From the sequence record PX393108.1: 64,000 nt of DNA; one strand, given 5' to 3'. The translations under genes were made by a program, and so were the position numbers. This stretch comes from a phage. The notes below the pieces were generated by a model. That model saw only the letters and a program-made list of their open reading frames with translations, was not told the DNA's origin and ran no database searches. The first letter of the stretch is position 1; every line of letters begins with the position of its first letter. This document shows positions 3,037-17,603 of the stretch, one piece after another.

Positions 3037-4050
3037 TCATTTATAATAACTTCGGTGGTTTTCAAGATAAACCCTCTCAAGGAAGTCATCCCAGAAACCC
3101 ATGTCTACTTTTTGTTGCATACCGTTCTTAGAAGCTTCAATGGATGCTGCTTCTACTTGATCGACCACATCTTCCAAAAACTCTTGAACAGTTTTAAATG
3201 GATGCTTACCCAGCTTCACGTCGAGAATAAATGGAGCGTCTTGAAGTGGATAAACTAAGTCACCGGTTTTGTAAATTTCCAATAGTTGGAGTCCACCACG
3301 ACAAGCATGACTCAGAGCTTTCCAGTCAATACCCTCATTCGCTTCAGCTTTACGAGCACGTTCACCATATTCAGCATCAAGTTTATTCAAAGACTGCTTA
3401 AGCTCAATAAGAGAAAGTGTAGTCTGATATTTACGACCCAACACAGTGTAAAACGTTTGTGGGCCTGTTTTCTCATGATTATGGAATACCCATTCGCAGA
3501 ACTCGTTTTCTGGAAGACGATGCTTAATATCTTCAACTTTAGTGCGACGAAGTCTATCAGGGATTCCTTCTTGATAGTCGACCCACTGGTCAGGGATTTG
3601 ATTAACTACTTTCAATACATCACGCAATGCGGCCAAACGAGAACCCTTGACACCATATTTAGAAGCTTGCTTGCGGACATATCCTAAATAAGATTTCATG
3701 TTAGTTGTATAAAAACGAGAACGATTGTCTTGAATAAACTTCCATACATCAGGCAAATCAGATTTAACTACCAGTTCAGGTGGAGTGTGGAGCATATCCA
3801 ATGCTACAGTTTCACCATCTGCTGCTAATTTAAAGAAATACTTAAGACTGTATAGTTCATGGTCAATATCATCTTTAGTGTTTTTAGATGATGTGTTGTT
3901 AGTGTTTTTACTCATATGCTCTTTAACATTTCCAATAAGAATATCGCGAGCAGGAGGAACAAAGATTTCTTTAAAATCTACATCAGATTCTGGAGTAGAA
4001 GTTCCATAAAGATGACTACCAAAATAGCTTTTCATTACTGTTTTCATCAT
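3037..4050 (-). CDS. Pol-beta superfamily nucleotidyltransferase (GS-x10-DVD motif) with long helical C-terminal domain
   Basis: 337 aa; N-terminal YFGSHLYGTSTPESDVDF matches hG[GS]x9-13Dh[DE]; further acidic residue in ALDMLH. Confidence 0.7.
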   Translation of the reverse strand: MMKTVMKSYFGSHLYGTSTPESDVDFKEIFVPPARDILIGNVKEHMSKNTNNTSSKNTKDDIDHELYSLKYFFKLAADGETVALDMLHTPPELVVKSDLPDVWKFIQDNRSRFYTTNMKSYLGYVRKQASKYGVKGSRLAALRDVLKVVNQIPDQWVDYQEGIPDRLRRTKVEDIKHRLPENEFCEWVFHNHEKTGPQTFYTVLGRKYQTTLSLIELKQSLNKLDAEYGERARKAEANEGIDWKALSHACRGGLQLLEIYKTGDLVYPLQDAPFILDVKLGKHPFKTVQEFLEDVVDQVEAASIEASKNGMQQKVDMGFWDDFLERVYLENHRSYYK

Positions 4051-4508
4051 TCAGCCTTATATTCAATAACAGGACATACTTTAGCTTTACGCGCTTTTAA
4101 AAATTCGACGATAATAGATTTCTTTGGTTGAATAGGAGGTAAACCTTTATACGCCCTATCAATATTTTCTACATGTAAAGCATAATCCTTTTTCCATTTA
4201 TAATCTTTATATTTTTCATGCAGTTGTGCAGGAATAACAAATGAACCAATAATAAGTAAAACAAGCAAAATAGCAAGTATAAATGCTGATGGAATAAGAG
4301 TCCATAAACTACCAAAAATAAGCCATTTCTGCATGATTTCTGCGCAGATGATAGTTAGACCTGCTAGTATAGTACATCCGAAAAAAGAAACGAAAAATGT
4401 AGGGATAACAATAGACCAAAAATATGCACACAGTGTCTTAGGTCGTTTCCATTCGTCGTTAAACATTTTGAATAATTTATAGTGCCAAGAGCTTTCATTA
4501 ATAATCAT
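4047..4508 (-). CDS. polytopic membrane protein
   Basis: 153 aa; several hydrophobic helices; ATGA overlap with downstream NTase gene. Confidence 0.55.
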   Translation of the reverse strand: MIINESSWHYKLFKMFNDEWKRPKTLCAYFWSIVIPTFFVSFFGCTILAGLTIICAEIMQKWLIFGSLWTLIPSAFILAILLVLLIIGSFVIPAQLHEKYKDYKWKKDYALHVENIDRAYKGLPPIQPKKSIIVEFLKARKAKVCPVIEYKAE

Positions 4509-13657: not shown

Positions 13658-14074
13658 TTAAATGTAAATATTTTTGCCGTAATACTTGTACCAGTGTGGC
13701 TTTATTAAAATTTTTTCATCGAGTCGTTGTTGACTCAATTTAATAGCTGATTTGCATGGATTATAATCATTTTTCCATTCTGCTGGAATATCGCTGATGT
13801 CGGGAACTTCAGTATCTTTTATACTAAACCCACGTTTTAAGCATTCCGTTATAATGTCTGATTGACGCTTTCGCAAAAATTCTAACTTATCGTAAAAGAA
13901 CGTAACATGACCAGAACCTAAAATAAACTCGGAAGATATTTTAAAATCTTTAACCCGCTTACCATTTGCCACGTGTTTACGAACTATACCAAAAACACGT
14001 GGCAATTCACGGTATTCTGCGATTAAATGCTGATCAGCAAGTTCAGATACTAAAGTCAAATTAATACGAGTCAT
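13658..14074 (-). CDS. denV: endonuclease V (pyrimidine-dimer DNA glycosylase)
   Basis: 138 aa; [17 protein letters not shown]...WYKYYGK matches recalled T4 DenV. Confidence 0.9.
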
Positions 14075-14133: not shown

Positions 14134-14664
<531 letters not shown>

Positions 14665-15120
14665 TTAAAAGAGGCTGTTCATTATTCGGTAAAGTGAAGG
14701 ACCCATCACATATTGCCACTGAGTACGAGGAATAAGAGCAAAAGCATCCATCTCTGGAATCATAACGCCATCTTTATTTTCAAAATAAGACTCACAACGG
14801 CAATTTCTGAACATCTCATGCTCTACTGGAATCGTATAATAAAATAACTGTAAGTCTTTATTACTAGAATATTTAAATACACCTAGGTCTTCTAGAAGGT
14901 CTGGATTATAATTGTTAAAACCAGTCTCTTCTGAGCATTCTCTTCGTGCTGCATCTAATGCGCTTAAATCAGAATTTTCTACACGCCCCTTTGGAATATC
15001 CCAGCGATGTGCCATCATTCCAGGCTTACGAGAACCAGTAACTCGTCCCATAAATAAATCTTTATCTTCTGTCATAAAGATAATACCAGCTGATAATGTT
15101 TTCATTTTAATTTCCTGCAT
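14665..15120 (-). CDS. nudE: Nudix hydrolase NudE
   Basis: 151 aa; Nudix box GRVENSDLSALDAARRECSEETGF; downstream of e as in T4; alternative start at 15105. Confidence 0.85.
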   Translation of the reverse strand: MQEIKMKTLSAGIIFMTEDKDLFMGRVTGSRKPGMMAHRWDIPKGRVENSDLSALDAARRECSEETGFNNYNPDLLEDLGVFKYSSNKDLQLFYYTIPVEHEMFRNCRCESYFENKDGVMIPEMDAFALIPRTQWQYVMGPSLYRIMNSLF

Positions 15121-15590
15121 TCAGTGATAAAGTTATTTAAATTTTGAGTATATTTCTTTTCATCAAAAATCTTTTGTTGTCTGCGTAGCCGCCATGGCAT
15201 TTCAATGAACGCGTACCATATCCCAGATAATATTGCTGCTGTAAAAATATTAACAAGTATGGTTAAAATAATCCAATCTCCCGTTCTGCCTACTGGACTT
15301 TCTCCAAAGAAGCAAAATACAAATGATGTCACAGGAAAACTAATAATGTACCACAGAATCATAATTTTATCTGTGAACCAATCAGCGTTCGTTAATTTAG
15401 CGCGACCATTATGAATACACACGAATTTATCATCTGTTGCAGTAGATGGCTTAACTGGTTGATATCCCATTCTAAACTCCCTAATTAATCGTTTCTTTGT
15501 ATCTTCAGAACAGCCGCTCCAGTCAACTCTATCGACTGAAATGCCATCGTCCCCATCATCTAAATCATACCAGCGAGTTTTTAAAATCAT
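15102..15590 (-). CDS. membrane protein, member of tandem array (C-terminal ...FITECRKLK)
   Basis: 162 aa; two hydrophobic helices in C-terminal half. Confidence 0.55.
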   Translation of the reverse strand: MILKTRWYDLDDGDDGISVDRVDWSGCSEDTKKRLIREFRMGYQPVKPSTATDDKFVCIHNGRAKLTNADWFTDKIMILWYIISFPVTSFVFCFFGESPVGRTGDWIILTILVNIFTAAILSGIWYAFIEMPWRLRRQQKIFDEKKYTQNLNNFITECRKLK

Positions 15591-15949
15591 TTAATTTTCC
15601 TACAATCACTCACAAACTCTTCCATTGATTCATTTTCAATATAAGACATGTAGTTATTATATTCTTTTAATTGTATTTTGTAATCCTTTTTTCTTTGCCA
15701 ATTTATTTTAAAATTATCATAATGAAAATATAGCATGGTACCAAAGAATGAAAATAATGTAATCGCTATAGTAAAACGAAGTTCACTCCAAACCTCTGTT
15801 ATAATTGCTGAACCATCGATGTTTAAAATAATACAGTCAATTAACAATCCAATAAGACTACCAGCAAGAGCTGCAAATACTGACACGGCAAGAATTAATA
15901 GTGCCTCGGGAAACGAATATTTGACTTTATTTAGTTTTGGCTTTTGCAT
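15587..15949 (-). CDS. membrane protein, member of tandem array (C-terminal ...EFVSDCRKIK)
   Basis: 120 aa; two or three hydrophobic helices; ATGA overlap with next gene. Confidence 0.55.
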   Translation of the reverse strand: MQKPKLNKVKYSFPEALLILAVSVFAALAGSLIGLLIDCIILNIDGSAIITEVWSELRFTIAITLFSFFGTMLYFHYDNFKINWQRKKDYKIQLKEYNNYMSYIENESMEEFVSDCRKIK

Positions 15950-16323
15950 CGTGATTCCTTAACAAATTTCATAATTTCATTAAATTCATACTCAGCAAGT
16001 TTAAGCTGGTGTTCCTTTTTAATCTTTTTACACTGTGCTTTCCAATCACGTACACGTTTACGATAATGTCTTCCTTGATACCAATATCCTATCCAATTTA
16101 CAGGTACTAATAAAAGTGGAACTATTAATGGAAGAATTAGCATTAACACAAGTATTTCGCCAGAATCAATATCAGTCATAACATCTAAAACACCTCCAAT
16201 AATCAATAGAATTACAAATGATATGAGTATAACAGGACCTATTAATACATCAGTAGGAATTAGCTGACGCTTTAGTTCATACTTCACAGGTTTACTTGGA
16301 AGGTATAGTGATGGCTTTGACAT
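15931..16323 (-). CDS. membrane protein, member of tandem array (start MSKPSLY)
   Basis: about 130 aa; hydrophobic helices; start after SD AAGGAATGTAGAGAAT. Confidence 0.55.
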   Translation of the reverse strand: MSKPSLYLPSKPVKYELKRQLIPTDVLIGPVILISFVILLIIGGVLDVMTDIDSGEILVLMLILPLIVPLLLVPVNWIGYWYQGRHYRKRVRDWKAQCKKIKKEHQLKLAEYEFNEIMKFVKESRCKSQN

Positions 16324-16897
16324 ATTCTCTACATTCCTTAACAAATTTTTCTAATAATAAATCGCTTTCAAAATTAGGATTTTCCACGAATTTATCAAAA
16401 AGATCATCAACGATAGTTAAGATATTCTTTTTACTAAGAATACGCTTATTTTCATATTTTGTTTCAGAGTCAACTATAAGAGTAAAGAAATATTTCTTTC
16501 CCTGAAATTTTACCGTAGTATCAATATAGAACAAATTTGACTTTTGTAAATTACGTTTAAACCATGCGTCACTTAAACTGTAAACGCCAAGATAATCATA
16601 ATCGTCATTTAAATAACAAACTGTCCATTCAGGAGAAATGAAATCAGTAAATTCAACATCAAAATCACACGTCAATGAATGAATTGATTCAATACTTTTA
16701 ATGAGTATTCCAGGACGTATTAAAGACTTTTTACCTTTATAAAATCCAGAAAGACTTTCATCAGTTTCATATGAAGACCCCCAATAGTAATTACGTCCTT
16801 CTGCCATACGTTTAAGAGCATTTAGTAATTGGTCTGGAACATCAATCTGTCTTTGGAACTCTTCAAACATTGAATTGAAATCACTTTGCATTTTCAT
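16292..16897 (-). CDS. hypothetical soluble protein heading the tandem array (C-terminal ...KFVKECREYVKAI)
   Basis: 201 aa ORF. Confidence 0.5.
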   Translation of the reverse strand: MKMQSDFNSMFEEFQRQIDVPDQLLNALKRMAEGRNYYWGSSYETDESLSGFYKGKKSLIRPGILIKSIESIHSLTCDFDVEFTDFISPEWTVCYLNDDYDYLGVYSLSDAWFKRNLQKSNLFYIDTTVKFQGKKYFFTLIVDSETKYENKRILSKKNILTIVDDLFDKFVENPNFESDLLLEKFVKECREYVKAITIPSK

Positions 16898-16918
16898 TCC
16901 TATTTACTCCAAGTAATA

Positions 16919-16932
16919 GGGGCCGAAGCCCC
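16919..16932 (-). terminator. GC hairpin with UUCG-type tetraloop (terminator or RNA-stability element)
   Basis: GGGGC-CGAA-GCCCC immediately after the 16939 stop. Confidence 0.4.
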
Positions 16933-16938
16933 TTATCA

Positions 16939-17532
16939 TTATTTCAGAGAATTAATGTATTCCTGAACATCGGCAGAGGTAGTTTCAACCCCGGAAATAT
17001 TACCGTTAAAGGTTTCAACTCGAGCAAGGGTATCTTCAATATCAACCTTAGTCAGTGCTGCAATTTCAACTACATCATCGGCAGTACTAATTCCAAGAGC
17101 ATTTGCCGCACGAGTTTCACGGATATATTCCAATTTAACCGCAAGTTCTTGGCGAGCATCATCTAACTCAACTACTTTCTTGGCGATTTCAATTCGCATT
17201 TCAGCATAACCGTCAGCTTTAGTAGTCAACTGCTCAGCTGTTCGACGATATAGCAAACCGAGTTTAGCATGCATTGTTACATCTTGACCTTCGGAAAGAA
17301 GTTTACGAATTTCACGCTCTTTTGATTCGGCCTGTCGATTCTTTTCGATAACAAGTTCACGAATACGTTTTTCTTCATTAATAGATTTAATAGAAGCAGT
17401 TTTTAGATCTTTAATTTTATCAAGTAATTTTGCTGCTGCAGCAGTATACTGTTCTTCGACAGATAGATTTTTAGCCATAGCAGAACCAAGTTTAGTGCGA
17501 ATAAACTCAACAATTTTCTTCAGTGTGTTCAT
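16939..17532 (-). CDS. coiled-coil protein (possibly PspA/IM30-like, speculative)
   Basis: 197 aa, strongly helical heptad-like composition; preceded by perfect early promoter. Confidence 0.5.
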
Positions 17533-17574: not shown

Positions 17575-17603
17575 ATTATATCTTGTTCTCCGAGGGATGT
17601 AAA
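17575..17603 (-). promoter_or_regulatory. T4-type early promoter (TTTACA-17-TATAAT)
   Basis: Perfect -10 TATAAT, 17 nt spacer, -35 TTTACA. Confidence 0.55.

Follow-up and report, generated by a model that had tools for sequence, protein, structure and literature searches.

A shared C-terminal peptide in the products of four overlapping early genes of a T4-type phage

The e.5-e.4-e.3-e.2 gene block

A stretch of 64,000 nucleotides (nt) of phage DNA (sequence record PX393108.1), called the window throughout, carries four consecutive minus-strand genes that overlap stop to start. The arrangement had been pointed out in an earlier note made from the sequence alone, and it was confirmed at exactly the positions given there, in agreement with the annotations of phages T4, IME339 and HY01. 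The four genes are the T4 early genes e.5, e.4, e.3 and e.2, which are catalogued, uncharacterised, real, expressed and accessory. The element under study here is a short peptide found at the C-terminal end of all four products and encoded where each gene runs into the next one. The genes, in the order of transcription, are the following (aa, amino acids; TM, transmembrane):

16292-16897, minus strand: e.5 orthologue (T4 Y06P/P39223), 201 aa, soluble, ending in ...LLLEKFVKECREYVKAITIPSK
15931-16323, minus strand: e.4 orthologue (T4 Y06O/P39222), 130 aa, two TM segments, ending in ...EIMKFVKESRCKSQN
15587-15949, minus strand: e.3 orthologue (T4 Y06N/P32274), 120 aa, two TM segments (the second weak), ending in ...SMEEFVSDCRKIK
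15102-15590, minus strand: e.2 orthologue (T4 Y06M/P32273), 162 aa, N-terminal domain, two TM segments and a long helix, ending in ...LNNFITECRKLK

By its database matches, the source phage is a Tequatrovirus (T4-type) and the region is the Tequatrovirus version of the e.5-e.4-e.3-e.2 block. Bases 15000-17000 matched 506 phage records at 90-97% identity in a megablast search, every one of them T4-type. Between T4 and the window, the proteins are 79-93% identical, and gene order, overlaps and neighbours (e.6 upstream; nudE and the lysozyme gene e downstream) are the same. Adjacent genes overlap by 32 nt (e.5/e.4), 19 nt (e.4/e.3) and 4 nt (e.3/e.2 and e.2/nudE, both ATGA). The e.4 gene starts at the ATG that is annotated in T4 and IME339, and its start and overlap agree with T4, IME339 and HY01. 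The start codon of e.3 is embedded in the Arg-Cys codons (CGA TGC) of e.4.

Each product was assigned to its own family. Full-length matches were obtained for e.5 (PHROG 2607, E=1.5e-107), e.4 (PHROG 2604, E=1.6e-70; 91.5% identity to T4 e.4) and e.3 (PHROG 2330, E=1.3e-57; 79% identity to T4 e.3), and in all three cases synteny agrees. The e.2 product, whose gene overlaps the start of nudE, matches PHROG 2203 over residues 1-160 (E=9.3e-79). Pfam entries are recorded on the homologues of e.5 (PF26876, Phage_T4_Y06P), on those of e.4 (PF26873, Phage_T4_Y06O) and on all close homologues of e.2 (PF26896, Phage_T4_Y06M); these names are UniProt placeholders only, and the databases hold e.2-e.5 as four separate families. 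Scans of e.2-e.6 against Pfam, NCBIfam and PADLOC gave no family above threshold, the PADLOC defence and anti-defence profiles gave no match at E <= 1 for e.2-e.5, and full-text literature searches turned up no functional study of e.2-e.5. Orthologues of these genes carry the labels 'sulfurtransferase', 'DNA primase', 'host specificity protein' and 'phosphoserine phosphatase' in GenBank/NCBI records, none of which is supported by the family searches; the first of them, found on e.3/e.4 in some records, was considered and set aside as annotation noise. The T4 reference has a 102-aa form of e.2, which recurs in further naturally isolated phages (P0096, 22 member sequences).

Expression of the block has been documented in T4. 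The e.2-e.5 RNAs are early and all four proteins were detected by mass spectrometry, with e.4 and e.5 classed as early, e.2 as middle and e.3 as late proteins (PMC9697503 supplement).

Membrane segments were located as peaks of a Kyte-Doolittle hydropathy profile with a 19-residue window. Two peaks were found in e.4 (2.85 and 3.04), e.3 (2.55 and a weak 1.53) and e.2 (2.09 and 2.21), and no hydrophobic segment in e.5. The earlier note had proposed three membrane proteins with two or three TM helices; three membrane proteins there are, but with two segments each and never three. Acidic loops between the segments and basic flanks suggest that e.4, e.3 and e.2 have both termini in the cytoplasm. 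The AlphaFold2 model of e.2 (predicted local distance difference test score, pLDDT, 74.6) has helices at residues 69-96 and 103-160, and the tail forms the end of the second helix, which runs on from TM2. Tails are helical in both AlphaFold2 models that were inspected. The tail is thus shown, as far as predicted structures go, at the end of a helix that in the three membrane proteins would extend from TM2 into the cytoplasm.

The C-terminal tail and its codons

The four tails and the translation signals that they contain lie at these positions:

16328-16345, minus strand: e.5 tail FVKECR (TTT GTT AAG GAA TGT AGA), AAGGA 11 nt before the e.4 ATG (16323)
15949-15966, minus strand: e.4 tail FVKESR(C) (TTT GTT AAG GAA TCA CGA), AAGGA 6 nt before the e.3 ATG (15949)
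15599-15616, minus strand: e.3 tail FVSDCR (TTT GTG AGT GAT TGT AGG), AGGA 7 nt before the e.2 ATG (15590), ATGA overlap
15114-15131, minus strand: e.2 tail FITECR (TTT ATC ACT GAA TGC AGG), AGGA 7 nt before the nudE ATG (15105), ATGA overlap

Composition predicts 0.42 occurrences of the strict motif F[IV].[ED][CS]R among the ~128,000 six-frame residues of the 64-kb window. Four were found, one each in e.5, e.4, e.3 and e.2 and always 3-11 residues before the stop. No other open reading frame (ORF) of at least 40 aa ends in the motif in the window and in T4 1-50 kb and 119-169 kb (~164 kb of T4-type genome); the end of thymidine kinase (YVSLCRK...) is a loose look-alike only. Chance as the source of the shared tail is excluded. 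Profile and motif comparisons show the shared part of the four products to be a C-terminal peptide, [LMI]-x-x-F-[IV]-x-[ED]-C-R-[KE], and not whole-protein ancestry. The earlier statement that all four proteins end in a related peptide stands, with a correction for e.5, whose end had been placed at ...YVKAI and in fact runs five residues on (...KAITIPSK). Within the tail, the hydrophobic positions (L/M, F, I/V, C) are spaced i, i+3, i+4, i+7, a pattern that would suit helix packing with the Cys in the interface. A cleavage site of the gp21 prohead protease, which the tail resembles in its (I/L)-x-E pattern, was rejected as its identity, because the Glu position is occupied by D in e.3 and by G in Kanagawavirus e.2, and because these are early membrane proteins.

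Orthologues from five Tevenvirinae genera retain the motif at an overall identity of only 25-55%. For Mosigvirus, the identity over the whole length is 46% (e.5), 55% (e.4) and 39% (e.3), and the tails read FIMECREYVK, FVKEIRCKS and FIKECRK. The most widespread member is e.2, with homologues at 25-44% identity in Mosig-, Dhaka-, Gapriver- and Kanagawavirus and in a few metagenome clusters, all of which end in FI(x)(E/G/M)CR(K/N). When 15 e.2 sequences with identities as low as 25% were aligned, 17 columns proved invariant: 13 in the N-terminal domain, four in the tail (F154, I155, C158, R159) and none in the membrane part. The conserved residues of the N-terminal domain are W7, D11, G16, V22-D23-W24, C27, L35-I36 and G42-Y43-Q44.

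The distribution of the block is narrow. Among 1.84 billion cluster representatives, the e.2 family has 12, and word-indexed homologue searches returned close relatives only. A tblastn search of 50,697 phage records found e.5 and e.4 in 644, e.3 in 609 and e.2 in 535; nearly all of the positive records are phages of Escherichia, Shigella and other enterobacteria, and two are labelled as Pseudomonas phages. Searching IMG/VR with a degenerate DNA pattern for F-I-[KE]-E-C-R-K-stop yielded 11 loci, ten of them on contigs of 121-172 kb and the eleventh on a fragment of 3.6 kb. The tail-bearing ORFs read at these loci are all T4-type e.2, e.3 or e.5 homologues or a protein of Dhaka-like phages that is described below.

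The earlier note had ascribed the peptide to a repeated nucleotide element that serves at the same time as Shine-Dalgarno (SD) and start region of the following gene. An SD-like run is indeed present in each tail, and the junctions resemble each other in pairs. The e.5/e.4 and e.4/e.3 junctions have AAATTTGTTAAGGAAT in common (16/16 nt) together with similar starts (ATGTCAAAGCCA vs ATGCAAAAGCCA), and the e.3/e.2 and e.2/nudE junctions have TG(T/C)AGGAAA(A)TTAAAATGA in common. Across all four junctions, however, only 14 of 75 aligned DNA columns are invariant and the codons differ synonymously. For the motif Arg, the codons are AGA, CGA, AGG and AGG in the window and CGT in the e.2 genes of Dhaka- and Gaprivervirus; for the tail Cys they are TGT or TGC, and for the Phe TTT or TTC. 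Among close relatives, changes at the motif positions are synonymous and the x position varies freely. This synonymous variation argues for selection on the peptide and not only on the embedded SD. The SD-like run lies on the K-E or E-E codons in some tails and on the C-R codons in others, so that the need for an SD cannot explain the conservation of F, I/V, C and R. RNA structure at the four junctions did not exceed that of shuffled sequences (z = +1.00, +0.71, -1.16 and +0.69). Codon usage in the tails thus shows the conserved entity to be, on this comparative evidence, a peptide under purifying selection on which translation-initiation signals are superimposed.

Origin of the array and its surroundings

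Tandem duplication and diversification of the whole array, as suggested by the earlier note, probably holds for e.3 and e.4 only; in profile-profile comparison e.2 and e.5 resemble the others in the tail alone. The e.3 and e.4 profiles align with P=3.4e-5 (hhalign) when the tail is included and, once it is cut, still end to end over ~96 columns with P=0.005 (probability 7%). Their first seven codons are identical at 15 of 21 nt, and the N-termini read MSKPSLY and MQKPKLN. A Dhaka-like contig from IMG/VR (L026) carries e.6, then a soluble tail-bearing protein and then a single e.3-type gene (P=1.5e-12 to e.3), where T4 and Mosigvirus have two genes. On these alignments e.3 and e.4 are probably tandem duplicates.

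For the remaining pairs, similarity shrinks to the tail. Comparison of e.2 with e.3 aligned 15-16 tail columns only (P=1e-4 to 3e-5), and P rose to 0.06 when the tail was removed; the match of the C-terminal half of e.2 to e.4 (37 columns, P=0.0012) is suggestive at most. The e.5 profile matched e.2 and e.3 over 9-10 tail columns only (P=0.003-0.007) and e.4 not at all, and without the tail no homology of e.5 to e.2, e.3 or e.4 was detected (P=0.11-0.46). The position of e.2 also differs between genera. In Mosigvirus it lies ~3 kb from the e.5-e.4-e.3 genes, upstream of nudE, in the order [228 aa]-e.2-[78 aa]-nudE, and Dhaka-, Gapriver- and Kanagawavirus have the same e.2 arrangement. This separate site implies that the T4-type array of four genes is partly a secondary juxtaposition. 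The array probably arose from one tandem duplication (e.3/e.4) and the juxtaposition of e.2 with the e.5-e.3 block, and the tail would have been grafted onto unrelated protein bodies. Recombination between the junction repeats was considered as the source of natural deletions and rejected, as the breakpoints in phages phiE142 and UFV05 fall elsewhere.

Three further proteins of sister genera end in the tail, the third of them less certainly:

Mosigvirus PECP20_215: 101 aa, two TM segments, ending in LENFIKECRGK; aligns with the C-terminal half of e.2 over 63 columns (P=2.9e-6)
Dhaka-like protein of contig L026 in the e.5 position: 178 aa, soluble, ending in FIAECREYAKEVRNV (FIAECREYAK); matches e.5 over 16 tail columns only (P=1.9e-4)
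Kanagawavirus PEi26 ORF-139 (less certain): 95 aa, soluble, ending in LDAFIQMCRRNQNVS; not significant, the best match being to e.2 over 14 columns (P=0.0046)

When a short C-terminal peptide stays in place although the body of the protein has become unrecognisable or has been swapped, this is, judged by these comparisons, the signature of a functional tag. A further apparent graft (P0119) was not used. It stems from a 524-nt metagenome scaffold (L015) in which the e.2 tail and the nudE start, ~115 nt of T4-like DNA, are flanked by unrelated sequence on either side, and which is probably a chimeric assembly; if genuine, it would add one more case of the tail grafted to a new protein. The genes themselves were already catalogued, and the window contributes an intact e.2. 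The shared and selected tail, the probable duplication confined to e.3/e.4 and the presence of the tail on unrelated bodies are not mentioned in the family annotations and papers that were searched, a body of literature whose coverage is incomplete.

The loci of the sister genera hold additional genes next to members of the block. Directly upstream of e.2 in Mosig-, Dhaka-, Gapriver- and Kanagawavirus lies a gene for a conserved protein of ~228 aa (MNGPK...HMLMPGWYPAIPG(F/Y)HHDD...EFPMEGW), its stop directly adjoining or overlapping the start codon of e.2; at this position it is missing from all T4-type loci. It was read at:

L008, 2719-3408: ~228-aa protein upstream of e.2
L009, 2734-3420: ~228-aa protein upstream of e.2
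L010, 2743-3429: ~228-aa protein upstream of e.2
L018, 3260-3946, minus strand: ~228-aa protein upstream of e.2

A second array of paralogues was noticed just downstream of e.3 in a Mosigvirus locus (L003 4231-4968) and in the Dhaka-like contig (L026 3681-4688). It encodes three or four soluble proteins, small and acidic, all of which end in W(V/I/F)(S/T)SSxxC-stop. Single members are present in Dhaka-, Gapriver- and Kanagawavirus loci (L008 122-334, L009 100-297, L010 583-822), in fetched stretches that do not include e.3. No such ends were found in the window and in the scanned parts of T4.

The surroundings of the block in the window comprise the following features:

14665-15105, minus strand: nudE (Nudix hydrolase), supported by Pfam NUDIX (E=9e-14), PHROG 1185 and the T4 annotation; coupled to the e.2 tail
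16918-16933, minus strand: GGGGCUUCGGCCCC hairpin with a UUCG loop between e.6 and e.5; fold of its 76-nt context z=-1.9
16939-17532, minus strand: e.6 orthologue, 197 aa, PHROG 1203 (E=3e-87)
17575-17603, minus strand: promoter-like TTTACA-17-TATAAT upstream of e.6, near-consensus and sigma-70-like (11/12); a consensus match only

A second possible start of nudE is the in-frame ATG at 15120 (MQEIKMKTLS...), which is formed by the Glu-Cys codons (GAA TGC) of the e.2 tail. The T4 annotation uses this longer form, and those of IME339 and HY01 use the ATG at 15105. In Tequatro-, Mosig- and Dhaka-like phages alike, e.6 always directly precedes the e.5-type gene, and its identity across genera (74-99%) is far above that of e.5-e.2. 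A likeness of e.6 to PspA/IM30 was considered and dropped, since Pfam (E <= 10), a phmmer search of the PDB and a PDB profile search gave it no support. The GGGGCUUCGGCCCC hairpin behind e.6 is probably a transcript-stabilising or weak terminator hairpin. The record of phage G8 has a 'terminator' feature somewhere inside the 2-kb match, and e.5 has an SD of its own (GGAG) downstream of the hairpin. By its match to the consensus, the site at 17575-17603 is a candidate for the early promoter of the genes from e.6 to nudE. Promoter-like sites are no more numerous in the region than in shuffled sequences, and no strong match coincides with any junction. Further downstream lie lysozyme e (14134-14628) and denV (13658-14074), separated by 59 nt; ipII and ipIII, which stand between them in T4, are absent from the window.

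A possible role of the tail and comparison with known systems

The reading that we place first, tentatively and with slightly less than even confidence, is that non-essential early proteins of the inner membrane share the tail as a helical interaction tag in the cytoplasm. Through it, the soluble e.5 protein and the two-TM proteins e.4, e.3 and e.2 would, early in infection, bind each other or a single shared partner on the cytoplasmic side of the inner membrane, and the conserved Cys may make a metal or thiol contact. The location of SD and start codons inside the tail codons would reflect the tight gene packing of T4 and translational coupling, which would favour a joint and roughly proportional output of the four proteins. 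Coupling does not explain the conservation of F, I/V, C and R. A more far-reaching version can be drawn, which we consider unlikely: FxxECR would be a portable assembly tag of a few T4-type genera, the tail helices would pack around a Cys core (metal or thiol), and a hetero-oligomeric inner-membrane complex would vary in composition as the tag was grafted onto e.5, the Dhaka-like 178-aa protein, PECP20_215 and ORF-139.

Several observations weigh against an interaction tag. Its sequence is not uniform, as the Cys of e.4 is displaced by two residues (SRC or IRC) and one e.3 orthologue has K for R (FIKECKS). The amphipathicity of the tail is unremarkable, its helical moment being reached in 4-23% of 2000 shuffles, and fold searches with both AlphaFold2 models returned no informative match. 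Every tail overlaps the initiation region of the next gene, which means that some constraint at the nucleotide level is certainly mixed in. The members are, moreover, individually dispensable in nature and in the laboratory. Knockdown of T4 e.2-e.6 by CRISPR interference was scored 'Not Fit', that is, without fitness effect (PMC11879866 supplement), although lysozyme e was scored likewise in this screen, which indicates that its sensitivity is limited. In the T4 reference (NC_000866 67472-67960; L001 2973-3461) e.2 is frameshifted into a 102-aa N-terminal ORF and a 51-aa remnant in another frame that still encodes ...FIEMPWRLRRQQKIFDEKKYAQNLNNFITECRKLK, whereas e.2 of the window is intact with 162 aa. 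In phage phiE142 (L014 ~3390-3490) a deletion of ~250 bp inside e.3, with breakpoints away from the junction repeats, has left MQKPELNLCCLRFSND* and put the tail out of frame. Phages of the UFV05 type have a single 106-aa in-frame chimera, e.4(1-30)::e.2(C-half) (P0097), in place of e.4, e.3 and e.2:

L016 (vB_EcoM-UFV05, OP555981.1), 4001-4321: e.4::e.2 chimera, also present in H70 (UFV11)

The breakpoint of this chimera, as read from the e.4 and e.2 sequences of the window, lies inside TM1 at a short TCCTGT microhomology. The fusion implies that the two-TM proteins are architecturally interchangeable.

The alternative that survives best, though we consider it improbable as a full account, holds that the tail is conserved as nucleic acid, either as a junction cassette for ribosome binding and translational restart or as a homology tract for the shuffling of genes, with the peptide as a by-product. 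It would account for the SD-like AAGGA, AGGA or GAGGA that precedes an overlapping start by 6-11 nt in every tail and for the near-identity in DNA of two junction pairs, to which the Mosigvirus e.3 tail and the T4-type e.5 tail, likewise near-identical when read from their codons, can be added. It also fits with gene content that switches exactly at the junctions: the gene after e.3 is e.2 in T4-type phages and one of 97 aa in Mosigvirus, the gene after e.2 is, depending on the genus, nudE or one of 78 aa or 106 aa, and a non-homologous soluble protein in the e.5 position has kept the tail. The tail pattern TTY-RTN-NNN-GAN-TGY-MGN is, however, codon-degenerate, with four codons from two codon families for Arg, and the codons for F, I/V and C lie outside an SD that itself shifts its codon position among the copies. 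The junctions are devoid of detectable RNA structure, and the rearrangements that were observed happened elsewhere, in TM1 (e.4::e.2) and within e.3 (phiE142). Finally, orthologous tails retain their own quirks across genera (xRC in e.4, CREYxK in e.5), which speaks against homogenisation by recombination. As a contributor next to selection on the peptide, a nucleic-acid constraint is possible, disfavoured as it is by codon degeneracy, by the missing RNA structure and by the lack of tail homogenisation.

A role of the small membrane proteins in superinfection exclusion or lysis timing, comparable to that of T4 Imm and Sp or of RI and T, is less probable still, the sequence giving it neither support nor contradiction. 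Like Imm, they are small early inner-membrane proteins, they are dispensable in single-phage laboratory growth as exclusion genes are, and their copy number varies between phages. Against this stand the lack of similarity to Imm or Sp (best BLASTP E=2.7) and of any PADLOC, Pfam or NCBIfam family above threshold. Lysis timing is further disfavoured by the early e.2-e.5 RNAs, lysis genes being late, and by the location of the T4 holin gene t, rI/rIII and the spanin genes elsewhere; the block is adjacent to lysozyme e through nudE only. Least probable of all is a C-terminal recognition signal for a host machine, for instance an FtsH/ClpXP degron that sets when early proteins are removed: short tails at the C-terminus are among the signals recognised by ClpX and FtsH, and the strictly C-terminal, predicted cytoplasmic position, the basic ends (CRKLK, CRKIK, CRK) and the unrelated bodies that carry the tail would suit it, but 11 residues follow the e.5 tail and five the e.4 tail, so that the motif is not always terminal, and the T4 e.3 protein is classed as late-accumulating, unlike a protein that is rapidly removed.

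Although T4 is one of the most thoroughly studied viruses, a large part of its genes lacks an assigned function, the e.2-e.5 block among them. The presence of a conserved peptide on four adjacent early proteins and on further, unrelated proteins of sister genera offers a concrete handle on a possible single membrane complex and its host contacts. The block is also a clean natural case in which constraint at the level of the peptide can be separated from constraint at the level of the mRNA in overlapping, coupled genes. Its practical weight is limited, as laboratory growth does not require the genes and the family occurs in enterobacterial T4-type phages only.

Among known systems, Imm and Sp of T4 are, like e.2-e.5, small early phage proteins, and they act at the cell envelope. 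Imm in particular resembles e.3 and e.4 in its small size, its two hydrophobic segments and its dispensability in the laboratory. Unlike e.2-e.5, Imm and Sp have no FxxECR tail and form no array, and there is no sequence similarity between the two sets. A second parallel is provided by the PeSL cassettes of T4-type phages, non-coding repeats of an early promoter and a stem-loop that flank ORFs in hyperplastic regions. Both are short repeats at gene boundaries in variable accessory regions where gene content changes. In contrast to PeSL, the tail repeat is fully coding, leaves no intergenic space, comes without a junction stem-loop or strong promoter match and is conserved at the amino-acid level. 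The third parallel is with the tails that act as short linear motifs, such as the partner-binding tails on replication proteins, in which a C-terminus of ~10 residues is likewise kept on several proteins of one genome while their remaining parts diverge or are exchanged. Unlike such tails in general, FxxECR is confined to a few enterobacterial T4-type genera and coincides with the junctions at which translation is coupled.

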